From a bacterium (GTDB lineage: Bacteria; Patescibacteriota; Microgenomatia; Daviesbacterales; UBA10151), in assembly GCA_021786105.1 (NCBI GenBank), contig JAJYNW010000006.1, positions 7,012-71,011 of the forward strand: 64,000 nucleotides of DNA, given 5' to 3'. Position 1 is the stretch's first letter. Each line of letters begins with the position of its first letter. The notes beneath the pieces were generated by a model, which was not told where the DNA came from, did not search any database, and saw only the letters and a list, made by a program, of their open reading frames with translations. Shown here in pieces: positions 6,211-63,554 of the stretch. Both the position numbers and the translations under genes were made by a program.

Positions 6211-6310
6211 ATTCTGTGTACATGGAGCAGGTTTTGACTGCTGTTATTATATCTAATTTAAGATTATTTGCATTATTTATTTGAAAAGAGGCAGGAGGTG
6301 GTGATGGTAA

Positions 6311-6481
6311 ATGTTGCCATTGGATGTAATCAGAAAATATTATTCTAATGCATCAGATGAGGAATTAAAAGGAATACAAGAATTTGTTTACCTTTTATCT
6401 TGCGGAATAATGCAGTATTTTTATGGATCTGATTGGGAAAAGGATATTATTGATTCAGATTTTGAAAATAAGAAAGATTGA
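6311..6481 (+). CDS. Small ORF (56 aa), acidic hypothetical protein with an upstream AGGAGGTGG
   Basis: Below the ORF-track length cut-off. 'aggaggtgg' at 6290-6298 precedes the ATG. Lies inside the island between the direct repeats. Confidence 0.25.
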   Translation: MLPLDVIRKYYSNASDEELKGIQEFVYLLSCGIMQYFYGSDWEKDIIDSDFENKKD

Positions 6482-6599
6482 CAGAACAATCCAATCATGA
6501 GTTCGAATCCTGCTCGGTCTCTTGTTTATAGGCTCAAAAATAAGGGATTTTTAACAAAATCTCGAGGCTAAATTTGTGCCAAAACACTAATATCATTCT

Positions 6600-6652
6600 G
6601 TGATCCCGATGATATCTTACACAGACTGAGTGAATTTTTCAAATTATTCTTG
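6600..6652. repeat. Right copy of the ~55-bp direct repeat (see 4994..5048)
   Basis: Same core: gtgatcccgatgatatcttacacagactgagtgaatttttcaaattattcttg. Confidence 0.6.
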
Positions 6653-6745
6653 TCTGACGGTCTAAACTCTGAATATACCTATCTCTTTTGCTTAAGAAAT
6701 GTACAATAAAGTACAGCAACTATTTTTATGCTAACATGAGAGCTA

Positions 6746-7303
6746 ATGGTTATTTTCATCGATGAATCAGGCATCCACAAGCAAACAGGTCATTCTACAG
6801 GAGCAGTTGTATATGTTGAGGTCAATAACTTTGAAAAGTTTGATAATAAGCTTAAAAAGATAGAGGAGGATTTAAAAATTAGTTACTTCCATTGGGCGGA
6901 AGAACGATGGTTTATGAAAAATAAATTTCTTTCTCGAATTTTCGATCTTGATTTTACTGTTAAGGTGGCTGTATTTGAAAATCCGGTAAAACCAGATTCT
7001 CTGCTTGAGATTGTATTCCAGCACCTTATTACAGAAAAAACCATCAAAAGTATTTATATCGACGGAGAAAAACCGAAATGGTACGAACATAAACTCAAGA
7101 AAGTATTACGAGATAAAGGTATAGGGCTTAAGAAATTGCGGACAGTAAGAAGTAAATCTGAAGTTGGTATTCAGCTTGCCGATGCTTTAGCAAGCTTAAT
7201 CAGATATTATCATGATAATCCGCAAGAAAAGGATGCTAAAAAGTGGTTTAGTAAGTTGAAAAAAGAGAAAAAGCTGGCTTTCGAACTGTTGGTTAATCAA
7301 TGA
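6746..7303 (+). CDS. DUF3800-family protein (N-terminal 'IFIDESG' motif); paralog of 62801..63373
   Basis: N-terminus 'MVIFIDESGIHKQ' matches the DUF3800 signature as I recall it. About 55% aa identity and ~80% DNA identity at the 5' end with 62801..63373. Confidence 0.6.
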   Translation: MVIFIDESGIHKQTGHSTGAVVYVEVNNFEKFDNKLKKIEEDLKISYFHWAEERWFMKNKFLSRIFDLDFTVKVAVFENPVKPDSLLEIVFQHLITEKTIKSIYIDGEKPKWYEHKLKKVLRDKGIGLKKLRTVRSKSEVGIQLADALASLIRYYHDNPQEKDAKKWFSKLKKEKKLAFELLVNQ

Positions 7304-7333
7304 ACAAGTTCTTGTCTTTGCCAATAAAAAACC

Positions 7334-7357
7334 CCACCTAAAGGTGGGGTCAGTTAG
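7334..7357. terminator. GC-rich hairpin ccccacc-taaa-ggtgggg with an A-tract 5' on the plus strand (T-tract on the minus strand)
   Basis: Perfect 7-bp stem immediately after the DUF3800 gene. The U-tract is on the minus-strand side, so it may terminate minus-strand readthrough or act bidirectionally. Confidence 0.5.
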
Positions 7358-7471
7358 TCAGCTAGTTCTTTCGAACTTTTCCCAGCCTGGGAATTTGTCG
7401 CTGATAACTTGTTATAAACGTATACTACCACAAGTACCCTTAAAATACAATCCCAATTCTAGCTTTAAAAA

Positions 7472-7573
7472 ATCGATCCCTGTGGCCAAGATGAATCATT
7501 TTTTACAATGTCAACATTCGCTCCCTAAAAGTAAGGTATTTTTACCCCGAGGACCATTCGGTGAAATTATTAT
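7472..7573. repeat. Copy 1 of a ~110-nt intergenic repeat (tcgatccctgtggc..acattcgc.ccctaaaagtaagg..cattcggt.aa..tatta)
   Basis: ~80% identity with 41716..41848 (copy 2). Copy 2 has an extra 31-nt insertion. The listed ORF 7344..7601 is probably not coding. Confidence 0.65.
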
Positions 7574-7578
7574 ACAGC

Positions 7579-8313
7579 TTAAAGGTATTTTAAATCAATA
7601 ATTTTGAAGGTAGAAAGTATATGTTCAAACATTTCCTGATCTCTTGCGTTATTCGAAATAGTAAAAATTACTCCATCTTTTGTGAAGTAGACTATGTCTA
7701 TTGGTGAGCCTACTGTTTCTGCACTGATTTTCTTAGCATCCAAACCATCCACTTTTAAATTTACCCAGCTATTAGAAATTGGGCTACTAAAAGACATTGA
7801 GAGTTGATCGTTCTGAGGCCATTGTTTGGGATCTACCTCTGAAAGTTGTTTATTTTTAGCAATTTTGATTGTGATTGATGGAATTATGTCGTTGAGTAAA
7901 CCATTATCTTTATTCTGAGCTTCTCCTAAGTAGATAGTCGCTGGGTCTTGGTAAATTAATTTTCCGTATGTTGTATAAGCTGTCCATATACTTGGAACTT
8001 CAACCTCAAAAACAGGATAACCTAAATGAAAAACTTTATATTGATATTTAATATAAGTACTTGAAGTGCTATCTTTAGGTAATGTTGTAGGGCTAATTTG
8101 GGGTGAGTATATAGTTTGTTTAACTTGAGACGATTCTTGATTTTTTTGAGTTCCTAGGTAATATGCACCTCCAGCTATAACGATCAAAAATATCACTACT
8201 CCTACTATCAAGGGAATAAAACCTTTCTGATTTGTTACTGGCGAATTATCAATTTTTGCTTTTGGGATTTCTTTAATAGCAGTTACCTGTGGTTTAGATA
8301 TATATGATTCCAT
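7579..8313 (-). CDS. Membrane-anchored hypothetical protein (single TM 'FIPLIVGVVIFLIVIAGGAYYLG')
   Basis: 244-aa ORF with an N-terminal TM helix. No recognisable domain. Confidence 0.5.
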   Translation of the reverse strand: MESYISKPQVTAIKEIPKAKIDNSPVTNQKGFIPLIVGVVIFLIVIAGGAYYLGTQKNQESSQVKQTIYSPQISPTTLPKDSTSSTYIKYQYKVFHLGYPVFEVEVPSIWTAYTTYGKLIYQDPATIYLGEAQNKDNGLLNDIIPSITIKIAKNKQLSEVDPKQWPQNDQLSMSFSSPISNSWVNLKVDGLDAKKISAETVGSPIDIVYFTKDGVIFTISNNARDQEMFEHILSTFKIIDLKYL

Positions 8314-8404
8314 ACTAGATTAGTATTTCAAAAATCAATCAATAACGCAACTGACCTCAATTATTGTTAACTTCTTTCATCTATTTTTAACTATTATTAA
8401 CTAG

Positions 8405-8477
8405 TGAGCCGGCAGGGGATCGAACCCTGGACCAAGAGCTTAAAAGGCTCCTGCTCTACCGCTGAGCTACCGGCCCA
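8405..8477 (-). tRNA. tRNA-Lys (anticodon UUU)
   Basis: Reverse complement folds as a 73-nt cloverleaf: GGGCCGG-TA-GCTC..GAGC-A-GGAGC-CTTTTAA-GCTCT-TGGTC-CAGGG-TTCGATC-CCCTG-CCGGCTC-A. Anticodon loop is CTTTTAA. Confidence 0.9.
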
Positions 8478-8518
8478 AACCTAATCTGTTTAATCTACTT
8501 TATCTTGCGTCCGGCATT

Positions 8519-8650
8519 ATAGTCGCTTCGTGACTACTCCTGCTCTTCCTGGGATAACCCTGATTTTAACTCATCCGCTGATCGCGGATCAGTATGTAGT
8601 TATCCCGTTAAAGTAAGGTTGCTTACTTTAACCCGCTGAGCTACCGGCCC
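8519..8650 (-). ncRNA. tRNA-Lys-associated structured element A: the first 19 nt of the tRNA-Lys(UUU) 5' end fused to a conserved multi-hairpin sequence
   Basis: Minus-strand reading: GGGCCGGTAGCTCAGCGGG + hairpin AAGTAAG/CTTACTT + GGGATAAC..GTTATCCC + ATCCGC-GATCA-GCGGAT + GAGCAGGAG + hairpin TAGTC..GACTA. A homologous element lies at 44200..44346 with compensatory stem changes. Confidence 0.5.
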
Positions 8651-8813
8651 TCGTCTAAGCACGGTTTATGTTTTCGCTTCAATGAATTGAAGCTTCAACT
8701 TTCACCGGCTTCTCCTCTCAAAATTGCTTCTCAATTTTGGAAAACACAGAAAATCAATCCTGAGTTTAATCAGTATTGTACTAAATTTGCTTTAATTTTG
8801 CTAATATGATCTC

Positions 8814-9776
8814 ATGGTTTTGGGGTTGAATTGGATTGATCTGGTGGTTATTGGGGTGCTTATCCTTTTTGCTTTAGAGGCAGTGGGTAGACCGTTGGTT
8901 TTGGAAAGTCTGGATTTTATCAGCTTTCTTTTGTCTTTCTTTTTCTCCTTTCGGGCTTACAATTTCCCGGCTAAATTTTTTGAAACTCAGTTCCATATTC
9001 CCCACGGATTAAGTTTAGTTTTTGGTTTTATGCTGGTTTGGTTTTTATCTGAAGCTATTTTTTTTCTGCTGGTTAGAATATTCCTGCCAAAAATCCCTAA
9101 GATCAATATTCCCGGGATTAATACTTTATCAATCATTCCGGCACTGCTGCGGGGGCTGATATTTATTGCAATAGCTTTGGTTTTAGTGTCTACTTTTCCC
9201 ATCCAGCCCAATATAAAAAAGAGTGTTTTGGATTCAAAATTAGGCAGCCAAATTCTTAAAGTTTCCTATAACCTGGAAGCTCCGGTTAAACAAGTTTTCG
9301 GCGGTGCGGCTAATGATTCATTAACCTTTTTGACAATTAAACCGAAAACCGACGAGCGGGTGAATTTAGGTTTTCATACTGACCAATTCTCTATCGACGA
9401 GCAATCGGAAAATCTAATGATAGATTTAGTTAACCGGGAAAGAGTCAGCCGGGGGTTAAAAGCTTTGTCGCTTGACGGACGGTTAAGGGAAGTGGGGCGG
9501 GGCCACAGTGCCGACATGCTTAAAAGAGGTTATTTTTCTCATTATTCGCCGGAAGGTTTAACTGTTGCTGACCGGGTAACTAATGCCGGAATTGATTTTC
9601 TAATAGTAGGAGAGAATTTGGCTTATGCTCCTAATGTGGAGCTGGCTCATCAGGGGTTGATGAATTCAGAAGGGCACCGGGCCAATATTTTATCTGCTGA
9701 TTTTAGTAAGATTGGGATAGGTGTTATGGATGGAGGGGTATACGGAAGGATGTTTACCCAAGTATTTAGTAACTGA
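8814..9776 (+). CDS. CvpA-like membrane domain fused to a C-terminal CAP/SCP (PR-1-like) domain
   Basis: N-terminal multi-TM region resembles CvpA. C-terminus has CAP-domain motifs 'GHSADML', 'GENLAY', 'HRANIL..FSKIGIGV'. Confidence 0.55.
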   Translation: MVLGLNWIDLVVIGVLILFALEAVGRPLVLESLDFISFLLSFFFSFRAYNFPAKFFETQFHIPHGLSLVFGFMLVWFLSEAIFFLLVRIFLPKIPKINIPGINTLSIIPALLRGLIFIAIALVLVSTFPIQPNIKKSVLDSKLGSQILKVSYNLEAPVKQVFGGAANDSLTFLTIKPKTDERVNLGFHTDQFSIDEQSENLMIDLVNRERVSRGLKALSLDGRLREVGRGHSADMLKRGYFSHYSPEGLTVADRVTNAGIDFLIVGENLAYAPNVELAHQGLMNSEGHRANILSADFSKIGIGVMDGGVYGRMFTQVFSN

Positions 9777-10360
9777 TGTGGTCTAACAGCAAATTATTAG
9801 CTATTGCTAGTTTTTTAATCGTTATTACTGGTTTTAGCTTTTTGTGGTTTGGACTGAATCAAGCCCCGCCGGTACAACCGTCCCCACTGCCTATTCCTGT
9901 TGTCCAAAATTCTCCTGTTGCCAGCAGTTCAGCCCAGCTTGGAATTACCGGCGAACGAATTGTAGTTTCTCGGGTAGTAGATGGGGATACGATTGAGCTG
10001 GTAGACGGCAAGACTGTGCGTTTTGTGGGAATGGATACGCCGGAAACAGTTGATCCGCGCCGGCCGGTTGGCTGTTTTGGCAAGGAGGCTTCCAATGAAA
10101 CTAAGAGTTTATTATCCGGTAAAGAAGTGATTCTGCAAAAGGATGTATCAGAGACGGATAAGTATAAAAGGTTACTCCGTTATGTTTTTCTGCCTTTGGA
10201 AAACGGCCAGATTCTTTTTATGAATGATTATTTGGTGCGGGAAGGGTTTGCAAAAGTTAAAGCTTATCCTCCGGATACAAAATATAATGAACAATTCAAG
10301 CAGGCGGAAAAAGAGGCCAGGGAAAACAACAGAGGATTATGGGGAAAGTGCGGAAATTAG
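9776..10360 (+). CDS. Secreted thermonuclease (staphylococcal nuclease, SNase-fold) homolog
   Basis: 'VVDGDTIELVDGKTVRFVGMDTPET' is the classic SNase motif. N-terminal TM/signal present. Confidence 0.8.
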   Translation: MWSNSKLLAIASFLIVITGFSFLWFGLNQAPPVQPSPLPIPVVQNSPVASSSAQLGITGERIVVSRVVDGDTIELVDGKTVRFVGMDTPETVDPRRPVGCFGKEASNETKSLLSGKEVILQKDVSETDKYKRLLRYVFLPLENGQILFMNDYLVREGFAKVKAYPPDTKYNEQFKQAEKEARENNRGLWGKCGN

Positions 10361-10403
10361 CTTGCGGTTTCGCTTTTTAACCTTGTGATACACTATTATT
10401 AAC

Positions 10404-10889
10404 ATGAAAAAATTTATTATTCAGACTGTGCTTTTAATTTTAGTTATTGCAATCGCTTTTTTTGTATATCGGGCCAATCCTAGTGTTTCCAATTTGCCTT
10501 TTGTGCCGGCGGCGACAGTTTTTAGGGAAGTGCAGATTAATAACGCAAAATTAAAGGTGGAGGTGGCAGATACGGCCGAAAAAAGGAGCCAGGGTTTGGG
10601 AGGAAGACAAAGTTTAGGCCAGGATGAGGGTATGCTGTTTGTCTTTCCATCTCCTGGTACACATGCATTTTGGATGAAGGGCTTAACTTTCCCCTTGGAC
10701 TTTATTTGGATCAGAGGAGGTAAGGTGATTGATTTGACTCCAAATGTGCCGCCTCCTGCTTCCGGACAACCGGATTCAACTTTACCGATTTATCAACCGA
10801 AGCAGGATGTGGATAAAGTGTTGGAAGTAAATGGGGGAACGATTCAAAGATTAAATATTAAGGTGGGAGATATGATTAAAACTCAATAA
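10404..10889 (+). CDS. DUF192 (COG1430) family secreted protein
   Basis: 'KRSQGLGGRQSLGQDEGMLFVFPSPGTHAFWMKGLTFPLDFIWI' matches the DUF192 pattern. Confidence 0.65.
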   Translation: MKKFIIQTVLLILVIAIAFFVYRANPSVSNLPFVPAATVFREVQINNAKLKVEVADTAEKRSQGLGGRQSLGQDEGMLFVFPSPGTHAFWMKGLTFPLDFIWIRGGKVIDLTPNVPPPASGQPDSTLPIYQPKQDVDKVLEVNGGTIQRLNIKVGDMIKTQ

Positions 10890-12424
10890 TGATTGAAATT
10901 CTGCCTATCAGATTACTAACTCCGGAGGATGCCCGGATATTCGGCAGCCTCAACGTGGCTTTGGCAAAGCTGTCAAGGTTCGGACTTGCTGTCGGAAACG
11001 GAATAGTAATTACCCCTCCGCAATTTAAGCTAAGAGTGGTTTTGGAGCATTTTGACTTTGGGACAAAAGAGGTTTTTGAGCAAACCCTGACTCTTGTCAA
11101 AAAAGAAATAAATTCGATTCCACTGCCAGAGGTTTTAATCAAAGAAACCGGTAAACAGCAACAATTTTTATTAAATGGAGAAAGGATTAAGTCGGTTAAG
11201 GGTTTATGGTTGGTTTTGCTGCATGTTTGGTTTGAGCAGATTAAAGGCCGGCTTTGGGACAGCGGTTTTTATCAAAGTATTACAGAAGATTTAGATCCGC
11301 AGGCGGTAATTTTTGTTAAAAAACTGGAAAGTTTAGGGTTTGCTCACTTTGATCCTTTGCAGGATGATGTGGAGATTTCAGTCAATCATGGGAAATTACA
11401 CCCAAACGACCAAAAGAAAATATTTGATATGGTTCAGCTGGCCAATAAAAAATTGTTTATTCCTCACCGGTATGAATGGATTTTAGACGGAGGCGTAAAG
11501 TTGGTGGGTGTAAAGCCTTATGCTTTTCCCGCTATCATTCCTGATTCTTTTTCTGTCATTGCGAGGAGCGGAGCAACGAAGCAATCTTCAACGGAGCGGG
11601 AGGATTGCCACGCTATCGCTCGCGATGACAAAAAAATTTCTGCTGTTAAAGTTTTTTTTGAATTATCTAAGGGATTTGCCGCTCAAGAAAATATTGACGG
11701 AATATACCTGGATTCGGGAAAAATCTTTGATTTAAACAAACCCCGGGAATCATTTGAGGAGTTGGTTTTGAAACTGGTGGGGTCTGCCAATGATTTCCCC
11801 GGTTCCCCCATACTTTTTAAACTGGCTGACAAATCAGAAGGCATGGGTAAAGTGCGCGGAACTTTACGGTTGCTTCACCAAAGCAGTCTGTTTGAACCGC
11901 TGACGGAGGCTTTAGATTTTGTCCGTCACAAAAAGGGATTTACCAATATCCATATAGTTATTCCTTTTGTCAGAGGAGTGAATGAGTTGTTGCAAATCAA
12001 AAGGGAGCTGGCGGTTAAGAAATTGGCCCGGAAAAATTCTTTGGGACTTTGGATGGAGGTAAGTACACCGGAAAATATCGTGAATCTGGAGGATTATTTA
12101 TTGGCCGGGATTGACGGGGTAGTTTTAAACTTGGATGAACTAATTTCTTACCTGAATGGTTTTAATTCAGCGGAAGGGGAATTGGCTTTTTATAAACAAG
12201 AGGTGGAAGGGTTATTAAAGTTTTTGGAAGACGGGATCAGGTTGCTGCATAAATCAAAAATCCCTTTTATAGCTTATGGCAGTTTAGCCCTTTATCCAAA
12301 AGTGTTGGAATTTTTGGTGGAAAAAGGAGTTTGGGGGATTGTGGTGGAAAGGTATGATGCCCACTCGGCCAAGGATTTATTAAATCAAACCGAAAGAAGA
12401 ATAGTTTTAAGAAAAACGGAATAA
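10889..12424 (+). CDS. PEP-utilising-enzyme-like protein (pyruvate-phosphate-dikinase / PEP-synthase-related TIM-barrel domain); assignment tentative
   Basis: C-terminal region 'IVIPFVRGVNELLQIKRELAV..LGLWMEVSTPENIVNLEDYLLAGIDGVVLNLDELISYL' resembles the PEP-utilising TIM-barrel domain. No clear phospho-His motif was found. Confidence 0.4.
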   Translation: MIEILPIRLLTPEDARIFGSLNVALAKLSRFGLAVGNGIVITPPQFKLRVVLEHFDFGTKEVFEQTLTLVKKEINSIPLPEVLIKETGKQQQFLLNGERIKSVKGLWLVLLHVWFEQIKGRLWDSGFYQSITEDLDPQAVIFVKKLESLGFAHFDPLQDDVEISVNHGKLHPNDQKKIFDMVQLANKKLFIPHRYEWILDGGVKLVGVKPYAFPAIIPDSFSVIARSGATKQSSTEREDCHAIARDDKKISAVKVFFELSKGFAAQENIDGIYLDSGKIFDLNKPRESFEELVLKLVGSANDFPGSPILFKLADKSEGMGKVRGTLRLLHQSSLFEPLTEALDFVRHKKGFTNIHIVIPFVRGVNELLQIKRELAVKKLARKNSLGLWMEVSTPENIVNLEDYLLAGIDGVVLNLDELISYLNGFNSAEGELAFYKQEVEGLLKFLEDGIRLLHKSKIPFIAYGSLALYPKVLEFLVEKGVWGIVVERYDAHSAKDLLNQTERRIVLRKTE

Positions 12425-23042: not shown

Positions 23043-23124
23043 TGTCATCCTGAGCGAGCGAAGTGAGCCGAAGGGACTCTGTCATGTTTCGAGATTGCTT
23101 CGTCACTTCGTTTCTCGCAATGAC
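23043..23124. repeat. MITE-like inverted-repeat element E1 (TGTCATCC..GAGCGAGCGAAGTGAGCCGAAGG .. CTTCGTCACTTCGTTTCTCGC..AATGAC) in the uvrB upstream region
   Basis: ~82 bp with imperfect ~25-bp terminal inverted arms. The same terminal motif is seen at 56354..56421. The core 'cctgagcgaRcgaagtgagYcgaagg' recurs at 41783..41813. Confidence 0.55.
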
Positions 23125-23132
23125 TGGAAAAT

Positions 23133-39000: not shown

Positions 39001-40413
39001 ATGAGATTAAGAAAGACTAAAATTATTTGTACTATTGGCCCGGCTTCCTGGGATAAATTAGAGCAGCTGATGCAAAATGGCATGGATTTGGCCCGGTTAA
39101 ATTTCTCTCACGGTACTCATGAGGAGAAGAAAGAACAAATAGTCAATATCAGAAAGCTTTCCCAAAAATTAAACAAACACGTAGCCGTCATTGCTGATCT
39201 GCAGGGACCTAAACTAAGACTGGGGACTTTTGAAGGAGAGAAAAGTATTACCCAAGGAGAGATTGTTCATTTGGCCTTAAATCCGGTGGCCGGGGAAATT
39301 CCTATTCAGTTTGATCTTTCCACTTACGTAAAAAAAGGACAGCGGATATTTTTGAACGATGGCTTGGTAGAATTAAAGGTAAGTAAACTTAAAGGAAAAA
39401 TTATCGAGGCAGTTGCACAAAATAACGGTTGGGTGGCTGCTAATAAAGGAGTAAATATTCCTGATACTTCATTAGGTAAAGACACTTTTACCGAGAAGGA
39501 TTATGCAGACGCGGAGTTTGCCCTAAAAGAAGGGGTGGATTTTTTAGCGATGTCTTTTGTGCAAAGGGCACAGGATTTGGATGCTTTGAAGGATTTGATC
39601 AAAAAACACAAAAGCAAAGCTAAAGTTATTGCCAAAATTGAGAAAAAAGAAGCAGCCGAAAACCTAAAAGACATTATTCTGGCCTCAGATGGGGTTATGG
39701 TAGCCAGAGGTGATTTAGCAATTGAAACTTCCGCGGCCAAAGTGCCGATTCTTCAGCAAGAAATAATTTCCCTGGCCCGTCAATTACGAAAACCAGTGAT
39801 CATCGCTACCCAAATGTTGGAGTCGATGGTTGGCAATCCCCGGCCTACCCGGGCCGAAGCGTCTGATGTGGCATATGCGGTTTTTAATCAAGTGGATGCG
39901 GTAATGCTGTCTGCAGAATCGGCTATCGGAAAATACCCGGTGGAAGCAGCAGCTACAATGCAGGATATTATTTTTTCCGTAGAAGAGAACCCTGATCTTG
40001 TACACTCTCTCAACATTGGATGGGAGAATTTGGATAAAGAAGAATTGCAGTTAAATGCTCTTGTTTCTTCTGCAGCTTCACTTGCTCGTAATATTCAATC
40101 TCCGCTTATTGCTGCGGCTACTGAAACAGGCAAGACTGCCCGCTATGTTTCTGCTTTCCGTCCCAACGCTGTGATTGTGGCAGCCGTTGCTGATGAAACG
40201 ATCCGAAACCAGCTGATGCTGATTTGGGGAGTACATCCTTTAATTGTGGAGCTTTCTCCTTCCAGTGATATTTATTTAAAAAGAATTATTGAAACAATTA
40301 AGAAAAAAAGGTTGGCAGAAAAGGGCAGCAAAATAGTGATGATTACCGGTTCAATTACCGGAGTCAGCGGAGCTACGGATACTGTTAAAATAGGCCGGAT
40401 TTGTGGAATTTAA
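39001..40413 (+). CDS. pyk: Pyruvate kinase
   Basis: 'KTKIICTIGPASWDKLEQLMQNGMDLARLNFSHG', 'MVARGDLAIE', 'ATQMLESM'. Confidence 0.95.
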   Translation: MRLRKTKIICTIGPASWDKLEQLMQNGMDLARLNFSHGTHEEKKEQIVNIRKLSQKLNKHVAVIADLQGPKLRLGTFEGEKSITQGEIVHLALNPVAGEIPIQFDLSTYVKKGQRIFLNDGLVELKVSKLKGKIIEAVAQNNGWVAANKGVNIPDTSLGKDTFTEKDYADAEFALKEGVDFLAMSFVQRAQDLDALKDLIKKHKSKAKVIAKIEKKEAAENLKDIILASDGVMVARGDLAIETSAAKVPILQQEIISLARQLRKPVIIATQMLESMVGNPRPTRAEASDVAYAVFNQVDAVMLSAESAIGKYPVEAAATMQDIIFSVEENPDLVHSLNIGWENLDKEELQLNALVSSAASLARNIQSPLIAAATETGKTARYVSAFRPNAVIVAAVADETIRNQLMLIWGVHPLIVELSPSSDIYLKRIIETIKKKRLAEKGSKIVMITGSITGVSGATDTVKIGRICGI

Positions 40414-40437
40414 AACCTCAACTAGGAACCTGGCTGA

Positions 40438-40563
40438 TGGTTTTATCATTTAAGCTCTTCGGAGCTAATGAATTTGGTGTACGTTTCTTCTCTGCCTTTT
40501 TTGGAATACTCATATTAATAACTGTCTATTTTAGCAAGAAGTATTTCGACAGACTTAGGTGAT
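40438..40563 (+). pseudogene. 41-codon remnant of a GT39/GT83 (ArnT/PMT-like) glycosyltransferase N-terminus
   Basis: 'MVLSFKLFGANEFGVRFFSAFFGILILITVYFSKKYFDRLR*' matches the first TM and loop of ArnT-family proteins (e.g. 'LFGDSEFALRLPSALAG'). The rest of the gene is absent; a Fic gene follows on the opposite strand. Confidence 0.5.
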
Positions 40564-40633
40564 CCAGTGGGTTTTCCGAGGAAGTAAATAATTTATCTGC
40601 ATTATCAAATTCTTGCACTTTTCCATTCATTGC

Positions 40634-41668
40634 TTATTTTTCCTTTAAGATATAGTAAGTCGCTTTGCCTTTACCTTTTCTGCTAATTAAGTCTAGCTCT
40701 ATTAATTTCTTAAAATCCAGTGCTCTGGTTGCTTTTGCCCGTTTAGCTAGTTTTGCATAATCACGGTCAGCAATAAATCCTTTTTCTTTTATAAATTCAA
40801 GGATTTTCAGATGGTATGGCTTAAGTTGAGTTTGGGGATTGATTCCAACATCCGGCAAGATTTTTTGGACTCTTAAAAGTTCATCGATAATTCCTTCGGT
40901 AAAGTACTCAAGCCATGACGTAAAATCAATCTTATCTATTAGTTCATAATAGTTCCCAAATTCACCAACTGTTTGAAAATATTTAGTAACATTTTTATTG
41001 TAGTAATTCTCAAAGCTAAACAAATTAAAGGTATTAAGTCCCATTTCGGCAAGTAATACTTTTGTAGCAAGACGAGTTGTTCTACCATTCCCATCCATAA
41101 AAGGATGAATAATTACAAGTTGCTTATGAAAGATAGCGGCTAAAATAAGTGGATCAACGGTATCTCTATTTGTATTTACAAATTTAACTAATTCTTCAAT
41201 CAAGGTCTTAACATCTTTTGCGTCCGGGGGTAAATAAATAACTTTTCTAGTTCGTGGGTCATTAACCACGACAGGTTTCCATCTTAGCTTTCCGGATTCA
41301 AATTTAGGTAGTAACCCTTCAGTAATTTGTTTTTGAATCTTTAGGATAAGATCAAGTGAAAGTCTAACCTTATTTTCATCAAGCTTTTTGTTTAAGTCTT
41401 GTAATGCTTGGTTATAGTTTAAAACCTCTTTTTCGCTATCTCTAATATGAGCAGGTTTTGATTTGAGGATTTTTTTAACCTCAGTTAAAGGAAGAGGATT
41501 GCCTTCAATACTGGTTGAGGCATATGTTGAAACTGCCCTTGCTGTTTTTTCTAACTCTACTAAGACAACATGGGGAAATCTTCTGTTATTTAATTCATTA
41601 ACCAAAGAATTAATTCTTTTTATATTTGCGAGGAGTTGATCTGTGATTATATATTTCTGATTAAACAT
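40634..41668 (-). CDS. fic: Fic/Doc-family protein (probable AMPylase) with a C-terminal wHTH-like region
   Basis: Canonical Fic motif 'HPFMDGNGRTTRL'. Confidence 0.9.
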   Translation of the reverse strand: MFNQKYIITDQLLANIKRINSLVNELNNRRFPHVVLVELEKTARAVSTYASTSIEGNPLPLTEVKKILKSKPAHIRDSEKEVLNYNQALQDLNKKLDENKVRLSLDLILKIQKQITEGLLPKFESGKLRWKPVVVNDPRTRKVIYLPPDAKDVKTLIEELVKFVNTNRDTVDPLILAAIFHKQLVIIHPFMDGNGRTTRLATKVLLAEMGLNTFNLFSFENYYNKNVTKYFQTVGEFGNYYELIDKIDFTSWLEYFTEGIIDELLRVQKILPDVGINPQTQLKPYHLKILEFIKEKGFIADRDYAKLAKRAKATRALDFKKLIELDLISRKGKGKATYYILKEK

Positions 41669-41715
41669 CTAGACGTATTATAGACGATTATTAGACGATT
41701 CGCAATGAGTAAAAC

Positions 41716-41848
41716 TTCGATCCCTGTGGCAAAGACGGTCATCTGTTACCAGTGCCGACATTCGCCCCCTAAAAGTAAGGACTTGTCCTGAGCGAACGAA
41801 GTGAGTCGAAGGATACTTTCACCGCAAGAATCATTCGGTAAAAGTATT
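41716..41848. repeat. Copy 2 of the ~110-nt intergenic repeat, carrying a 31-nt insertion (41783..41813) homologous to the E1 core
   Basis: tcgatccctgtggcaaag..acattcgccccctaaaagtaagg[acttgtcctgagcgaacgaagtgagtcgaagga]tactttcaccgcaagaatcattcggtaaaag aligns with 7472..7573 minus the insertion. The ORF track's 41801..42058 begins inside the insertion. Confidence 0.65.
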
Positions 41849-42294
41849 ATATATACTTGGTGTGTAGTACGTTATGTCAAGCATCGTAATTTTTTAATAA
41901 GGTATGAATGTATGAAAAATAAAAATTATTTAGCTCGATTTGCAAATGCCAGTTCCATTGCCTCATTTATGTTAGGTATTGTTATTGGGAAACTTGGCTG
42001 GAGCAGCAATGCAATAAAGGCTGATCTCCAAAATAAAAATCCAGAGTGTTTTCCGTAAAATACGCGGTATAAATAACTAAGCTTTGATTAGACCGTTATA
42101 TCAATCTAATCCCAGTCTGTTTTTAGCACTATCTGGTGAGCTATCTGTACCAATTTTCGAACTTGTATGATGGAATGATAGTTCTTTATCAGAAGCTTAT
42201 TCAACTATTCCCAAGCGTAGAAAAAGAAGGTTTTAGGGTTTTCTATATAATCAATTTATAGTAGGATGGGGGTTGCAGAAAACCGCCAAATGAA

Positions 42295-43338
42295 CTAATT
42301 ACTTGTAGGTGGATATTCCCAGCAAGAAGGTTGCCCATCTGGAACAGCAACCCACTTCTGCCATTTTGGAGATTTCTTTGCTTGATCCAATTCTTTCCGG
42401 GCTCTTTCTTCTAGTGCTGCCGGAGAGGATCCGTGTTCAACCCTTCGGACAGTCTCATTATATAGAGCTGTTTCTAGTAAAGTTTCACTATCTGCTGCTT
42501 CTCTTGGAATACTAGCACTGTAAAACTCAAGATTGGTCTGTTTTTGCTCTGTCCAACCGCTAAGAAAATGTTCACCTGGGTAGCCAACAGAAACCGAGGA
42601 TATGCATAATTCCTTTCTATCGTTTCCGGAATCTTGTTCTACATTAACTACTGTAATCCGCAAAGCGGTACTGTTTATAGCAGGTTCATATCTTTGTGTT
42701 TCTGGATGGCCGGGTGTGTAGTCACCAGAACCAATATTAAGTCTGCCTTCTACTTTAGGAACATACTGCATTCTCACACTAGGGTACTGATAAAATAGCT
42801 CCAACCCACCCATATCATGTGTCCAGTTATATGCATAATTTTGGTGCGTATAACAAGCTTTTTTACCTGCAATAAAAGTTCGTCCTGCCGCTCTTCTAAT
42901 TTCACCTCTGCCTCCCCATATTGTATCCTTGATATATTGCAACCTTTCCGCTACTCTAAATACTTCTAAGATACCATCCGTTTCTTTTCTTATTAATTCT
43001 TGTTGTTCTTCTTGTAGTTTTATTGCTTCTTGACGCCTCAATTTTTCTGATTTTGCAAATGCCTCTGCTGCGGCTGCCGCTTCTGCTGCTTTCATATTCT
43101 CTAGATCAAGCGCTTTCTGTTGATCTGCCGCTAGCCGTCCATCAACAACTGAATTAATTTTATCTGCAAAATTCTCTAATCCCGGTGGAGGTTGTCCAAA
43201 TGTTGGTTGACTTGTTATTAGAGTAGGATTTTTTGATGGTTCAGTTATTCCGAAAATTCTTCTTAAAAATCCAGGGAGACAACCTTGAGGTTCTTGAGGG
43301 GCAGTTATACCAGTTTGCTTAGGTGCTTCTGCTGACAT
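42295..43338 (-). CDS. Hypothetical protein (Pro-rich N-terminus, Ala/Glu coiled-coil, globular C-terminal domain)
   Basis: 347 aa, no recognisable motif. Lies in the Fic/tRNA-Lys island next to a 2H phosphoesterase. Confidence 0.5.
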   Translation of the reverse strand: MSAEAPKQTGITAPQEPQGCLPGFLRRIFGITEPSKNPTLITSQPTFGQPPPGLENFADKINSVVDGRLAADQQKALDLENMKAAEAAAAAEAFAKSEKLRRQEAIKLQEEQQELIRKETDGILEVFRVAERLQYIKDTIWGGRGEIRRAAGRTFIAGKKACYTHQNYAYNWTHDMGGLELFYQYPSVRMQYVPKVEGRLNIGSGDYTPGHPETQRYEPAINSTALRITVVNVEQDSGNDRKELCISSVSVGYPGEHFLSGWTEQKQTNLEFYSASIPREAADSETLLETALYNETVRRVEHGSSPAALEERARKELDQAKKSPKWQKWVAVPDGQPSCWEYPPTSN

Positions 43339-43379
43339 AACAGCTTGATTTTACCCCTCTAAACCAATAAAGTCAAAAT

Positions 43380-43952
43380 ATGAAGAATTTTAGCTCTTAT
43401 TTTATCGGAATCCCTCTACCACAAAAGTATCAACTGGATTTTGAAACTTTACAGGCCGATGTCTCTCAAATCAGTCCTTTATTTAAAACAACCCACCCTA
43501 AAACTCCCCACATTACTGTTTACTACTTAGATAAACTGCCTCAATCTTCCTTGCCAAAAATAGCAGAAGAAGTTAAGAAACACTTAGAAATACTAAAAGA
43601 AGCTAAATTAAAAGTAGGTGGTTTTGGGTATTTTGGTAAGGATAAACCAAGAATACTATTTGCAGATGTTAAATATCCACCGGAGTTACTGGAATTTAAT
43701 AAGTTAATTTCCGAAAGCTTATCTGTTTATTCAGCATATGATAGCAGCTTACCATTTCGTCCTCATGTTACAGTAGCCTGGGTAGGAGATCCTGATGCTC
43801 AATTAGCTTTTAAAGCTAATATGTCAGAATTAAGATCAATAGTTGAAAAAGTTAACTGGACATTTGATGTTACAGAAGTAGTTTTATATGGAGTTGATAC
43901 TACAAAAAAACCAGAGTACCACGAAAGATTAATAACTATTGAAGTTAGATAA
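43380..43952 (+). CDS. 2H phosphoesterase superfamily protein (LigT/ThpR-like 2'-5' RNA ligase / cyclic phosphodiesterase)
   Basis: Two H-x-T-x motifs: 'HITVYY' and 'HVTVAWV'. Confidence 0.65.
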   Translation: MKNFSSYFIGIPLPQKYQLDFETLQADVSQISPLFKTTHPKTPHITVYYLDKLPQSSLPKIAEEVKKHLEILKEAKLKVGGFGYFGKDKPRILFADVKYPPELLEFNKLISESLSVYSAYDSSLPFRPHVTVAWVGDPDAQLAFKANMSELRSIVEKVNWTFDVTEVVLYGVDTTKKPEYHERLITIEVR

Positions 43953-44107
43953 ATAACCTTATTTTACTGTTTGGGTTTCGAACTATTTTATGCCTAAGAA
44001 AAAGAAGAAATTAACTGACATATTATTAACGAACCAGCACTATAACAGCAAAATTAAATCCAGCAGTTGAATTTTTGAAAACCTATAATCCAACTCTGGA
44101 CAAACTG

Positions 44108-44180
44108 TGAGCCGGGTGGGGCTCGAACCCACGACCGAAGGATTAAGAGTCCTTTGCTCTACCAACTGAGCTACCGGCCC
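44108..44180 (-). tRNA. tRNA-Lys (anticodon CUU)
   Basis: Reverse complement: GGGCCGG-TA-GCTC-AGTTGGTA-GAGC-A-AAGGA-CTCTTAA-TCCTT-CGGTC-GTGGG-TTCGAGC-CCCAC-CCGGCTC-A. Confidence 0.9.
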
Positions 44181-44199
44181 ATACAATCATTATCTATCA

Positions 44200-44346
44200 A
44201 TTGTTAAACGTACTTCCTGCAAAAAACCTTCGGCCTTGCTCTTCCTGGGATGACAATTATTTTAAGCTATCCGCTGATCGCGGATTAATTTGTAGTTATC
44301 CCGTTTAAGCCGGTTTACGGCTTTAACCCAACTGAGCTACCGGCCC
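44200..44346 (-). ncRNA. tRNA-Lys-associated structured element B (first 19 nt of tRNA-Lys(CUU) plus conserved hairpins); homolog of 8519..8650
   Basis: Minus-strand reading: GGGCCGGTAGCTCAGTTGGG + hairpin AAGCCG/CGGCTT + GGGATAAC..GTCATCCC + ATCCGC-GATCA-GCGGAT + GAGCAAGG.... Stem 1 differs from element A by fully compensatory changes. Confidence 0.5.
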
Positions 44347-44450
44347 AAGGTTTATATTCTACCAATTTACGCACTAAAGCGCTACTTTGGCGATAATGTA
44401 ATTTATATACCGCTGAGCTTGTTTGTTTATGATATTCCCAATAAATTGCA

Positions 44451-44927
44451 TTGTCAGGTCCTCTATGTTATATTAGGCCAAATCTGCCCGCAATAAAGAA
44501 TATGGCAGTCGAATGGGATCATGGTAGAAAATCTATTGATGGTAAGGTAGTGTTCAGTGTTCAACATAATTCTGTACTACATCTTGTTTCATTTCCACAA
44601 GCAGTTAAAGAAGAACAAATAAGAGATCTTGTTCAGGAAAGAAAATTACGAGGAGTAACTCCAGATGAATGGGTGGATTTTCTCGCCGATCAAAGATTAG
44701 AAAAAGCTGATTGTGATATTGCCTTAATGTTCACTGGACAATGGGATGATTCTGAGGCCCGTTTTCCGGCTACTATGGTGTACAGGACTCATACCAGGGA
44801 AATGGAGATGGTTTCCAATTGGTTACGAGTATATTGGGAGCCGGGATATGCTTTTCTCTTTGCCGAAGAATCTCCTGAGCACCATCGAGTAAGGAGAATC
44901 ATAGACTCCTCGGAATGGGCAAGATAA
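44451..44927 (+). CDS. Hypothetical protein
   Basis: 158-aa ORF, no motif recognised. Confidence 0.4.
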   Translation: MSGPLCYIRPNLPAIKNMAVEWDHGRKSIDGKVVFSVQHNSVLHLVSFPQAVKEEQIRDLVQERKLRGVTPDEWVDFLADQRLEKADCDIALMFTGQWDDSEARFPATMVYRTHTREMEMVSNWLRVYWEPGYAFLFAEESPEHHRVRRIIDSSEWAR

Positions 44928-44975
44928 TTATTTATTTTAAACCTCTAAGATACAGAATATGCTAGACTGGCTTTA

Positions 44976-45650
44976 ATGGTCTATTTTATTCTTTTCCTAG
45001 TTGAGCTAGTTTTTCTCTTCCTTTTATCCCGACAGCTGGTTCAATCACTGGCTCGTGCAATTTATAAAATATCCAAGAGCCACCGGGTAGTGGTGCATAC
45101 TTTAGCCATTTTGTTTTTACCAGGCACGATTATTCATGAGCTGGCCCATCTGTTATTTGCCGGCGTGATGCTGGTACCAGTGGGGGAAATGAATGTGCTG
45201 CCAGAGATTGAAGGTGATGGGGTTAAATTGGGCAGTGTCCAAATAGCCAAAACTGATCCTTTCAGAAGAATGATTATTGGGGTAGCACCAGTGCTTTTGG
45301 GGATGATTTTAATTTTTTCTATTTTTCTTTTGGTAAAATTAGGCGTCTCACCTTGGTGGCAGGCGGCTCTTGCTTTATATTTTCTTTTTGAAATTGGTAA
45401 TACCATGTTCTCTTCTAAAAAAGATATTGAAGGCAGTGTTCTGTTTGTAATCCTAATTTTAACTCTAGCATTGGTAATCACAATAGCCTTATATTTTCTA
45501 AATCCGAATATCCTGCAAAACTTCTGGTTGTATTTAAATCAGCTAAATCTTGATTTTGCAGCAAATTTTTTTAAACAAGCCTCTATTTATCTAATAATAC
45601 CGGCTGCTTTAGATTTACTGATGATTTTACTGACTAAGCTTGCTACTTGA
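44976..45650 (+). CDS. Polytopic membrane protein with an HExxH motif ('IIHELAHLLFAG'); possible intramembrane metalloprotease
   Basis: Five to six hydrophobic segments. HELAH sits in a predicted TM helix, as in site-2-protease-like enzymes. Tentative. Confidence 0.35.
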   Translation: MVYFILFLVELVFLFLLSRQLVQSLARAIYKISKSHRVVVHTLAILFLPGTIIHELAHLLFAGVMLVPVGEMNVLPEIEGDGVKLGSVQIAKTDPFRRMIIGVAPVLLGMILIFSIFLLVKLGVSPWWQAALALYFLFEIGNTMFSSKKDIEGSVLFVILILTLALVITIALYFLNPNILQNFWLYLNQLNLDFAANFFKQASIYLIIPAALDLLMILLTKLAT

Positions 45651-50997: not shown

Positions 50998-51800
50998 TAC
51001 AATATCCTACCTCGGAGGTAGGAGTGAGGTTACACCTAGGGTTTTAGGTAATTTTCAATCTTCCCCATCAATTAATAAATGCTTTACCGTTTCTAAGCTC
51101 TGTGCGTATTCTACCTGGTCTAACACAAATTGTTCATATTTCTTTTTAGTTTTGAACAAAGATAAGATGATATCATTTGTACAAACCCTGTCTATTTGTA
51201 AGCCAATATAAGCTAGGTAGGATGACCAAGAATAATCTTTTAGGTTTTTAACCAAAAACGATGCAATTGGATTTAAATGAATATATCGAGAAACATGAAT
51301 AAGTTGCGTATCAGATTCTATTCTTACAGCTTTAAATTGCCCTTGTAAGAGCGGACCTATTCTATTGTGTTTTGCATTAAAAAATTTTGTATAACTATTT
51401 GAGATTTTATTGATAAACTCAGAAATACCATTTTCTTGGAGCTGTTTTATCAAGAAATGGTAATGATTTGGCATTAAGCAGTAACATAGAATCTCTACAA
51501 TCTTTTCATTCTTCTCAAATTTGAAATCCTTAAACCTATTTAGTTGGGAAAATTGTGGTTTAGGTCCTTGGAATTGGTAATAATAAATTGTTTCCAGGAA
51601 GCGATTGTAATCTCTTTTATCTGTAAAGATTGGCAGTTTTGCTACACCACGATTAAAAACATGATAGATTTGATCATTAACAAGTGGGGTTGTTCGATAG
51701 GGCATATAAATAAACTAAACTATATAAACCCCACGTGTCAATACATTTCTACCTCGGAGGTAGGAGTATAATGATACATAGGGTTTTGTGACTCTAAGCT
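50998..51800. mobile_element. IS200/IS605-family or RAYT-like element: a Y1 (HuH) transposase gene flanked by ~50-bp direct repeats, each with a CTACCTCGGAGGTAG hairpin
   Basis: Left flank 51003-51052 'cctacctcggaggtaggagtgaggttacacctagggtttt'. Right flank 51752-51800 'ctacctcggaggtaggagtataatgatacatagggtttt'. The transposase CDS lies between them. Confidence 0.65.
51055..51705 (-). CDS. tnpA: IS200-like Y1 (HuH) transposase / REP-associated tyrosine transposase
   Basis: 'YHVFNRGV', HuH motif 'LMPNHYHFLI', and 'SRYIHLNP' carrying the candidate catalytic Tyr. Typical Y1_Tnp architecture. Confidence 0.75.
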   Translation of the reverse strand: MPYRTTPLVNDQIYHVFNRGVAKLPIFTDKRDYNRFLETIYYYQFQGPKPQFSQLNRFKDFKFEKNEKIVEILCYCLMPNHYHFLIKQLQENGISEFINKISNSYTKFFNAKHNRIGPLLQGQFKAVRIESDTQLIHVSRYIHLNPIASFLVKNLKDYSWSSYLAYIGLQIDRVCTNDIILSLFKTKKKYEQFVLDQVEYAQSLETVKHLLIDGED

Positions 51801-62800: not shown

Positions 62801-63373
62801 ATGGTTATCTTCATCGATGAATCTGGTACTCATAAGCAAGTAGATCATACTACCATAGCCTTAGTCTATGTAGAAATAGCCAATCTGGAAGAATTTGAGA
62901 AAGCAGTAGAAAAGATTGAGGAAAAGTTAAGTATCAAACACTTTCATTGGACAGATGAAAAATGGGAGAAAAGGGGAAAGTTTATTGAGCAAATTTTGAA
63001 ACTGGATTTTTTTGTTAAAGTAGCCATACTAAAAAACCCAATTAAACTTGCTGAAAGCCTAGAAGAAGCCTTAAGACATCTTGTGGTTGAAGAGAATATA
63101 AAGAAAATTATGCTTGATGGTAGAAAACCAAGATGGTATAACCAAAAGCTGAAAAAAGTATTAAGAGATAAGGGTGTATCTGTTAAAAAGATTGTTACTG
63201 TCAGAAAAGATGAATCTAGTCCTGGGATAAGAGTATCTGATTGTTTAGCAGGGTTAATTAGAAGTAATTACGATAATCCCGATTCACAAGCTTCTAGGTG
63301 GTATGACAGGATGAAAAATGCAGAGAAGATTAGACTTGAGATTACTACTTATCCACAAAAAAGCCTCGCTTAA
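62801..63373 (+). CDS. DUF3800-family protein; paralog of 6746..7303
   Basis: 'MVIFIDESGTHKQ'. Colinear with the first copy along its whole length. Confidence 0.6.
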   Translation: MVIFIDESGTHKQVDHTTIALVYVEIANLEEFEKAVEKIEEKLSIKHFHWTDEKWEKRGKFIEQILKLDFFVKVAILKNPIKLAESLEEALRHLVVEENIKKIMLDGRKPRWYNQKLKKVLRDKGVSVKKIVTVRKDESSPGIRVSDCLAGLIRSNYDNPDSQASRWYDRMKNAEKIRLEITTYPQKSLA

Positions 63374-63384
63374 AGCGAGGCCAG
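63361..63384. terminator. Hairpin gcctcgc-ttaaa-gcgaggc directly after the DUF3800 paralog, with an A-tract on the plus-strand 5' side
   Basis: Same geometry as the hairpin after the first DUF3800 copy (7334..7357). Confidence 0.45.
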
Positions 63385-63554
63385 TTGTACAGGTAGTACT
63401 AATTTCTTAGAACTCGGCGGCTCACCGTCCTTTGTCCCTGCCAACTTGTTGTAAATGTATTATATCACAATCTGTATTAAAAACTCATCTCAAAATCAAA
63501 ACACCCATAAACTAAGGTTTAATGAGAAAATAAGTCTGGTATAATTTTCCAAGA

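Follow-up and report, generated by a model that had tools for sequence, protein, structure and literature searches.

2H enzymes of the ThpR/LigT type act on RNA 2',3'-cyclic phosphate ends, and the anticodon nuclease PrrC classically targets tRNA-Lys. For the classes of Fic proteins we adopted published definitions, under which SoFic belongs to class II; it provides defence by abortive infection with a single protein and in E. coli has a downstream antitoxin, AS1, of 47 amino acids (aa) (PMC12249575). Structured RNA motifs associated with DUF3800 were described in the same kind of bacteria as the one studied here (Weinberg et al. 2017, PMC5737381). We analyzed a locus in which genes for a Fic protein, a 2H phosphoesterase and a 347-aa protein lie between pyk and a tRNA-Lys(CUU) gene. 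The host is a tiny-celled groundwater-type bacterium of the Patescibacteria (Microgenomates type), and bacteria of this type live attached to other cells. The whole stretch of DNA analyzed, called the window below, comprises 64,000 nucleotides (nt) (assembly GCA_021786105.1, contig JAJYNW010000006.1, positions 7,012 to 71,011), and all coordinates are those of the window.

Our analysis suggests that the interval from pyk to tRNA-Lys(CUU) is probably a rearranged accessory locus made of independent modules, not one integrated element. In this scheme, an internal piece of a GT-C glycosyltransferase gene and the first 24 codons of a 183-aa gene would mark illegitimate recombination junctions. The Fic unit would be self-contained, consisting of a structured RNA, a CGTCTA promoter and a class II, SoFic-type AMPylase, and the second unit would be a divergent pair of genes for a ThpR-type 2H enzyme and a fast-evolving 347-aa protein that recurs in other Microgenomates. 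These two modules would simply have tRNA-Lys and the element upstream of it as neighbours.

For comparison we used loci from other genomes and metagenomes, designated by L-numbers (L015, L021, L026, L045 and so on), together with a survey of 80 further Fic loci from metagenomes, in which neighbours within 5 kb were recorded. Divergence was measured on pairwise gene alignments as synonymous divergence (pS) and as the ratio of nonsynonymous to synonymous divergence (dN/dS). The same locus, with identical proteins, was present in three assemblies (GCA_027424735.1, GCA_027342865.1 and GCA_023487645.1) and in several short-read contigs. An earlier reading made from the letters alone (the sequence-only reading) had listed pyk, a short open reading frame (ORF), Fic, a repeat, the 347-aa ORF, the 2H gene, tRNA-Lys and an element next to it, and all of these were found where it had placed them. 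The features of the locus are as follows.

39001-40413, plus strand: pyk (Pfam PK, E 4e-102)
40401-40562, plus strand: GT-C glycosyltransferase piece, a 53-codon ORF with its ATG at 40438 (Pfam PMT_2 and PMT; NCBIfam ArnT)
40559-40630, minus strand: stub of a 183-aa gene, N-terminal 24 codons (tblastn against L045)
40634-41668, minus strand: Fic, 344 aa (Pfam Fic, E 1.4e-18)
41669-41705, minus strand: Fic core promoter with CGTCTA repeats and TATAAT
41706-41842, minus strand: Fic leader RNA (covariance model R1), with the earlier "repeat copy 2" (41710-41780) inside it
41843-42294: spacer of ~450 nt, no similarity found
42295-43338, minus strand: gene for the 347-aa protein (family profile search)
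43339-43379: divergent promoter region of the 347-aa and 2H genes (promoter motif, nucleotide conservation)
43380-43952, plus strand: ThpR/LigT-type 2H phosphoesterase, 190 aa (TIGR02258)
44107-44180, minus strand: tRNA-Lys(CUU), intact (ARAGORN; Rfam tRNA, 72.1 bits)
44227-44346, minus strand: tRNA-Lys(CUU) upstream element (blastn against 8541-8650)

Truncated genes at the pyk border

Nucleotide homology of pyk to its relatives in L026 and L024 stopped at 40391/40392. The C-terminal tail beyond this point, GRICGI* (40393-40413), was unique and longer than the ends of ~30 pyk homologs, which terminate in ...T[IV]K[VI]xx[ILV]; the last seven pyk codons are supplied by DNA of the glycosyltransferase fragment, read in another frame. 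From these alignments, the tail at 40393-40413 is the apparent left recombination junction.

The glycosyltransferase piece matched PMT_2 (PF13231; E 8.4e-7, 29.8 bits vs a gathering score of 26.1) at profile positions 2-42 of 160, PMT (PF02366; 23.7 bits vs 22.7) at positions 63-103 of 245 and the NCBIfam ArnT profile at positions 61-100 of 539, and it aligned with residues 63-106 of a 499-aa PMT_2 protein at L033. Its homologous part extended over ~40413-40535, leaving ~45 codons, and its frame was closed by stop codons at 40386-40388 upstream and at 40560-40562 downstream. This falls short of a complete multi-pass GT-C enzyme of the PMT_2/ArnT kind (GT39/GT83; ~450-550 aa with an N-terminal catalytic loop), and no other piece of the gene was found in the window. 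Since the longer profiles were matched only at positions ~60-100, the piece is evidently an internal fragment (~residues 60-105), a pseudogene stub cut at both ends that is without ~60 N-terminal and ~400 C-terminal residues. The sequence-only reading had proposed that a GT39/ArnT-like gene was destroyed here with its first 41 codons surviving; the Pfam match above the gathering score upheld a destroyed GT-C gene, and the internal position of the match contradicted the survival of its start. Nor did the ORF behave as a genuine small conserved protein, as its 53 codons are not kept as a small gene in L026.

A second stub, which had been missed in the earlier reading, abuts the glycosyltransferase fragment back to back. 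Running from 40630 to 40559, it showed 62.5% identity in tblastn to residues 1-24 of a 183-aa protein of L045, and gene callers had reported it as a 34-aa ORF (40526-40630). In L045 and L052, the 183-aa gene starts 4 nt past the Fic stop codon, and nucleotide homology of the window to both loci ran past the Fic stop as far as 40526. The 34-codon ORF was also considered as an AS1-like antitoxin and was rejected, since it is the truncated start of the 183-aa gene. Because two truncated genes abut and the pyk tail has been replaced, these junctions indicate that at least two illegitimate recombination events would have shaped this border.

The border also differs between relatives. L026, the closest pyk relative (84% identity), retains the upstream cohesin-type genes; its homology stops seven codons short of the pyk stop and gives way to genes for an XRE regulator and a HigB-like toxin. 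This XRE/HigB-like pair was ~75% identical to a pair that comes after the Fic and 183-aa genes in L045 and that precedes Fic in L035/L036. The clade may thus have had the order pyk, XRE/toxin, 183-aa gene and Fic, from which the window genome may have lost the middle part. The L026 contig ends 0.8 kb past pyk, inside the toxin gene, and the L021 contig measures 3 kb. With L026 diverging after pyk and L021, the closest relative of the 2H/347-aa pair (81-84% identity), having other flanks on both sides of that pair, the suggestion that the interval is non-syntenic accessory DNA was borne out. A genome-contig search with pyk found no relatives.

The Fic gene and its product

The Fic protein matched PF02661 with 67.9 bits (gathering score 24). 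Its catalytic motif, H188-PFMDGNGRTTR-199, fits HxFx(D/E)GNGRxxR, and an inhibitory motif, S51-TSIEG-56, lies in the same polypeptide on the N-terminal side of the core. Human FICD was the best match among solved structures (E 3.7e-18): as in FICD/HYPE and bacterial class II Fic AMPylases, the catalytic loop could be aligned, and TVAIEGN of FICD aligned with TSIEGN of the window protein. Unlike FICD/HYPE, the window Fic is without a TPR (tetratricopeptide repeat) domain or a membrane anchor and has a bacterial winged-helix C-terminus instead. By analogy, it would transfer AMP from ATP to a target protein and would be restrained by its own N-terminal inhibitory glutamate, E55.

The PADLOC model for SoFic (PDLC03963; PMC12249575) was matched over its full length (E 4.8e-45; residues 12-342 on profile positions 25-352 of 361), and the two share the class II inhibitory motif, the HPFx(D/E)GNGRxxR signature, the C-terminal helical/winged-helix region and the solitary gene. 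However, the NCBIfam SoFic equivalog NF046030 gave only 73.3 bits, far below its cut-off of 550 and short of orthology to the Shewanella protein, and SoFic chains in the PDB matched at E 1e-10 only. The window protein is therefore best described, from its sequence features, as a putative class II AMPylase of SoFic-type architecture and not as a SoFic ortholog. It further differs from SoFic in being preceded by a conserved structured RNA and in having no conserved small downstream antitoxin comparable to the 47-aa AS1: homology ended at the Fic stop codon in ~75 of the 80 loci.

The family comprised more than 120 clusters at 82-89% identity in Levy-, Davies-, Roizman-, Gottesman- and Blackburnbacteria, with 75-89% identity across Microgenomates overall; pyk was only 54-60% identical to the same groups in which Fic reached 82-89%. 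Such conservation across a superphylum-level group is unlike that of typical patchy defence genes. Since synonymous sites were saturated (pS 0.65-0.76) and dN/dS was ~0.05, Fic is old and under very strong constraint, with no sign of recent spread. The gene was equally AT-rich in nine other lineages (GC content at third codon positions, GC3, 0.23-0.32), so its low GC is a family trait; for both reasons, the candidate explanation that Fic is a recent import was rejected.

In the 80 further loci, Fic was a solitary, discrete unit whose flanking genes vary; contigs of Levybacteria, Gottesmanbacteria and others, for example, have unrelated genes around it. The homology of this unit to the window had its 5' end at ~41700-41854, and within 5 kb none of the 80 loci had the glycosyltransferase piece, either member of the 2H/347-aa pair or the genes found to the right of the tRNA in the window. 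Fic may work as a toxin in abortive infection, as SoFic does, or it may be a homeostatic AMPylase comparable to FICD; conservation as extreme as this favours a cellular target that stays constant.

The Fic promoter and leader RNA

Fic is preceded by three CGTCTA repeats and a TATAAT hexamer, with a promoter-like TTGCGA-17-TATAAT at 41705-41677. Since the -10 hexamer ends at 41677, only ~9 nt before the ATG at 41668, the arrangement suggests that the Fic mRNA would be leaderless or near-leaderless. This promoter block was conserved in essentially all 80 Fic loci (homology to at least ~41700), and in the closest ~20 loci homology upstream of Fic reached ~185 nt. Logan short-read contigs from at least four samples all break at 41671-41699 in the Fic promoter, with a ~30-nt overlap. 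A population variant or indel was considered for these breaks and dropped for a simpler explanation, namely that they are probably an assembly-graph branch arising from identical promoter 30-mers in co-occurring relatives.

Upstream of the promoter lies the element that the sequence-only reading had called repeat copy 2. Its match to 7466-7536 was confirmed by blastn (E 3e-12), and we now read it as part of a Fic leader RNA with covariation support. The RNA is ~100-137 nt in size and in its minimal form (~100 nt) folds as a three-way junction, in which a 12-bp helix, P1, closes the structure and is followed by a U-rich run, and two hairpins, P2 and P3, carry loops that take inserts of 10-130 nt resembling miniature inverted-repeat transposable elements (MITEs). 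The window leader (41706-41842) has such an insert in the P2 loop. Covariance model R1 detected 24 instances in 85 sources and scored the window leader at 70.9 bits (E 6e-18). Among the 24 instances, 91.7% of aligned cells were paired, compared with 33-54% in controls slid by 1-3 columns, and helix 3 showed repeated compensatory changes, for example AU in 11 vs GC in 9 instances at one pair. The RNA preceded Fic in at least 19 loci and in many lineages, and in most instances its distance from the Fic ATG was 40 or 74 nt.

Neither leader-RNA copy matched Rfam at E<=5 (41600-44500 and 7300-8800 were scanned, and only tRNA and DUF3800-II were found), and the Fic-linked structured RNA is apparently undescribed so far. 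It resembles the DUF3800-associated RNA motifs (Weinberg et al. 2017, PMC5737381) in its conserved structure and its occurrence in bacteria of the same kind, and also in that copy 1 in the window (7462-7565, minus strand), which lies away from Fic, is ~50 nt upstream of a DUF3800-II small RNA (RF02961). It differs from them in standing outside the Rfam families and in being linked mostly to Fic, not to DUF3800. From its position and conservation, we infer that the RNA would either regulate in cis as a leader or be a small RNA, and that an operator would be formed by the CGTCTA repeats; the leader RNA and the Fic C-terminal winged helix acting on these repeats would probably tune expression.

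Other instances stand next to other genes, in L035 (3034-3148) ~50 nt upstream of a HigB-like toxin gene and in L086 (2995-3098) behind a gene homologous to that for the 244-aa membrane protein of the window. The MITE-like sequences (...CGAAGTGAGTCGAAGGA / GCTCAGGAC...) in the leader-RNA loops recur in the window and in other genomes: copies were found in the window at 41785-41811, 23048-23074, 11548-11587 and 23092-23131, and inserts in leader-RNA loops also in L028, L033, L035 and L037.

Between the leader RNA and the 347-aa gene, the spacer (41843-42294) showed no similarity in blastn or tblastx to any comparison locus outside the same species. The sole ORF of this region, an 85-codon GTG ORF at 41801-42058, was unsupported and had no Pfam match.

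The 2H phosphoesterase and the 347-aa protein

The 2H protein exceeded the curated cut-off of TIGR02258 (ThpR; 80.4 bits vs 65.7) and matched Pfam 2_5_RNA_ligase2 (PF13563; 54.6 vs 27) as well as LigT_PEase. Both of its HxT motifs, H44-I-T-V and H129-V-T-V, were invariant in four genomes, and its length of ~190 aa is also that of the ThpR/LigT RNA 2',3'-cyclic phosphodiesterases; it would accordingly be expected to hydrolyse 2',3'-cyclic phosphate ends of RNA or nucleotides. Its likeness to solved LigT structures was very weak (E 0.0096). It also differs from the described enzymes in belonging to a divergent pair with an uncharacterised, fast-evolving protein and in showing signs of exchange between lineages. 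No PADLOC match was obtained, and PHROGs returned one match of unknown function (E 2e-4).

The sequence-only reading had called the 347-aa protein an orphan, which no longer holds, as a profile search recovered 95 cluster representatives of its family, 49 of them at E<1e-30. All members share the N-terminus MSAEAPK..., and most also have a GCLPGFLRR-type segment and a WGGKGEI-type motif. When a five-member alignment was used as a profile in a contig search, two loci only were found. The domain analysis of 42295-43338 that the earlier reading had proposed thus yielded a family, and it gave no informative domain or fold match. The ORF itself had no Pfam or NCBIfam match; a Pfam scan of the 49 members gave none at gathering scores and three single-member matches at chance level (E 0.004-0.009); the family profile reached only E 0.34 against PDB sequences; and PADLOC and PHROGs gave no match for it. 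The AlphaFold2 model (predicted local distance difference test score, pLDDT, 70) showed a disordered N-terminus, a ~70-residue helix and a beta-rich domain, and no fold match was found in the PDB or among the viral models of BFVD. With a dN/dS of 0.25-0.39, the gene is fast-evolving.

The two genes were divergent neighbours, 41-58 nt apart, in four of seven genomes (the window, L021, L019 and L023), and the outer flanks of the pair differed in each of the four. In the window, the region between them contains TTGACT-17-TAAAAT at 43376-43348 on the minus strand. Identity of the 347-aa protein to that of the window was 81-84% in L021, 37-44% in the Daviesbacteria locus L019 and 35-42% in L023. 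The 2H gene was absent beside the 347-aa homolog in L015, L115 and L116; since the proline-rich gene that directly abuts the 347-aa homolog in L116 is the same one that flanks 2H in L021, L116 looks like an empty site for the 2H gene, judging by gene order. Divergence was as follows.

Window vs L019, four core genes: pS 0.62-0.75, aa identity 59-72%
Window vs L019, 347-aa gene: pS 0.72, aa identity 44%
All four genomes, pairwise, 2H gene: pS 0.35-0.47 (star-like), aa identity 75-85%
Window vs L021, 2H gene: pS 0.47, aa identity 81%
Window vs L021, 347-aa gene: pS 0.31, aa identity 84%

The divergence of the 2H gene, whose product in the window was 75-81% identical to those of L021, L019 and L023, was therefore discordant, lying above that of its 347-aa neighbour against the closest genome, L021, and far below the baseline against the distant genomes. 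A sliding comparison resolved a sharply bounded block of ~700 nt, from ~43975 to ~43260, that takes in 2H and the intergenic region and reaches ~25 codons into the start of the 347-aa gene. This block was 75-95% identical at the nucleotide level to L021, L019 and L023, whereas the rest of the 347-aa gene was only 35-60% identical to L019 and L023. Since synonymous divergence is far below the genome baseline, the simplest reading is that the 2H block would have passed horizontally from lineage to lineage and come to lie at one and the same position each time. Only the 2H gene in the interval showed this signature.

Other features lie beside 347-aa homologs. In L015, the Woykebacteria homolog is closely preceded by a group I intron (8632-8848; Rfam, 61 bits) with a small GIY-YIG gene next to it, and in L019 a GIY-YIG gene lies 1 kb downstream of the homolog. 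A GC-rich stretch of ~550 nt with no convincing ORF separates the homolog in L021 (2250-2800) from a core of the tRNA-upstream type; it may be a structured RNA and had no Rfam match at gathering scores.

The tRNA-Lys genes and their upstream element

The region upstream of tRNA-Lys(CUU) (44237-44346) matched the region upstream of tRNA-Lys(UUU) (8541-8650) in blastn with E 2e-22 and 78-81% identity, and both copies lie on the minus strand. In both tRNA-Lys genes, a copy of the gene's own first 19 nt lies 55-60 nt upstream. At the CUU locus, the copy of tRNA positions 1-19 (44346 to 44328) is followed by an 86-nt structured core (44327 to 44242), then by GAGCAAGG and then by GGCCGAAGG, the last of which is perfectly complementary to tRNA positions 40-48. 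The core occupies the position of the D-loop, after which GAGCA(A)GG follows as in the tRNA. The hairpins of the element covary, the first core hairpin among three copies. The core also occurs at L021 2807-2895, in a non-tRNA context; the element had no Rfam match (E<=5), and the core was not found in viral contigs. One possible reading of the element is a small mobile insertion accompanied by partial duplication of the tRNA; it might also be a leader or decoy for tRNA-Lys.

One element or several modules

Under the proposal of foreign cargo inserted at the tRNA-Lys gene, a single island carrying Fic, the 347-aa gene and the 2H gene would have entered the genome at tRNA-Lys(CUU), and a resident glycosyltransferase gene would have been destroyed in the process. 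The three genes are indeed adjacent, lie on the 3' side of the tRNA gene and are all among the six with the lowest GC3 of the 58 genes in the window; the glycosyltransferase fragment sits at the far border, and the interval is not syntenic in relatives. However, Pfam scans of every ORF, together with precomputed Pfam annotation for 10 kb to each side, showed no integrase or recombinase, and blastn-short with the tRNA and its flanks revealed no direct repeat of the tRNA 3' end in 38-44 kb, the only copy being that of the 5' end at 44328-44347. Terminal repeats around each module were likewise absent. Fic and the pair were never together elsewhere, neither in the 80 Fic loci nor at the other pair loci, where no Fic gene was called nearby. 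In addition, Fic is ancient and intrinsically AT-rich, it has a truncation scar of its own in the 183-aa gene stub, implying at least two events, and the glycosyltransferase piece is cut at both ends. Taken together, a single integrated island appears quite unlikely.

Still more improbable, in our judgement, is that Fic, 2H, the 347-aa protein and tRNA-Lys form one RNA-targeting conflict or repair system, for example one that damages and heals tRNA-Lys. The sequence-only reading had seen in Fic, 2H and an unknown protein next to a tRNA a likeness to RNA-targeting conflict or repair modules. The known activity of 2H enzymes on RNA ends and the role of tRNA-Lys as the classical PrrC target would suit such a system, as would the upstream tRNA 5'-end copy with its structured insert at both tRNA-Lys genes and the position of the L019 pair ~4.5 kb to the 3' side of a tRNA-Lys(UUU) gene, the nearest tRNA-Lys at any other pair locus. 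Against it, Fic and the pair do not co-occur, and the pair adjoins tRNA-Lys in this window only; L021 and L023 have no such gene within reach. The locus also lacks a partner nuclease, ligase or kinase, and PADLOC had no match for the 2H or the 347-aa protein.

An ordinary, vertically inherited region with fast loss of gene order, in which the 53-codon ORF arose by chance or encodes a small membrane protein, would agree with the saturation of Fic synonymous sites like that of core genes, with the loss of synteny around pyk already at 71% identity and with the identity of all same-species assemblies here. It does not accommodate an ORF that scores above a gathering threshold and matches an internal segment of a ~500-aa enzyme, the two abutting stubs, the replaced pyk tail or the discordant 2H block, and we regard it as unlikely.

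Several points weigh against a locus of independent modules as well. The near relatives amount to two sets (L026/L027 and L021) on short contigs, and no empty site was seen in them. Synteny decays fast, since L024, a pyk relative at 71%, shares no neighbours; because of this, different contexts alone are no proof of mobility. The uniformly low GC3 of the adjacent Fic, 347-aa and 2H genes would also fit co-acquisition, and the low synonymous divergence of 2H could stem partly from selection on synonymous sites. The stubs, the replaced pyk tail and the separate distributions of Fic and the pair nevertheless lead us to prefer a rearranged locus of independent modules over one integrated element. 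Like defence and toxin-antitoxin hot spots, this locus has varying accessory genes after pyk in close relatives and gene fragments at its junctions; it differs from them in lacking a mobility gene or flanking repeats.

Other features of the window

The only transposase near the interval is a Y1, IS200/IS605-type gene (51055-51705, minus strand) ~7 kb away; direct repeats of 39 nt, each containing a hairpin, lie on its two sides at 51007-51045 and 51749-51787. Two DUF3800-II RNAs (Rfam RF02961) were found on the minus strand, at 7348-7415 and 63379-63452. Each is convergent with a plus-strand gene and lies immediately 3' of it, the first next to the ORF at 6746-7303, which we take to be a DUF3800 protein from the known association of the RNA motif, and the second next to a 190-aa ORF at 62801-63373. 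A TATAAT promoter of its own and a clear terminator hairpin accompany the second of these RNAs.

A second cluster of low GC3 (5101-8313), on the 3' side of tRNA-Lys(UUU), contains a 369-aa gene, the ORF at 6746-7303 and the gene for the 244-aa protein. On the other side of tRNA-Lys(UUU), the region 8814-12424 (CvpA-CAP, SNase, DUF192 and PEP-utilizer genes) is syntenic with the Daviesbacteria locus L019. Between tRNA-Lys(CUU) and bipA (44451-45650) lie genes for a 158-aa protein, which had no homolog in any comparison locus, and for a 224-aa membrane protein with a HELAH (HExxH-like) motif; neither had a Pfam or NCBIfam match.

Implications

The three-way-junction RNA could represent a new regulatory class that gates toxin-type conflict genes in Microgenomates, and the 2H/347-aa pair could be a horizontally exchanged conflict module acting on RNA or nucleotide cyclic-phosphate ends; we put forward the two together tentatively, as a possibility that we doubt more than we favour. 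For annotation, it matters that what looks like an island can, in a small genome of poor synteny, be a junkyard of junctions where independent modules meet. The locus also provides a recurrent 2H and 347-aa pair in which the enzyme gene alone would move between lineages, as well as a testable new structured RNA linked to a Fic gene. Finally, constraint like that on Fic (75-89% identity) is not usual among proteins labelled as phage defence in databases, and it points to a constant cellular target in these bacteria.

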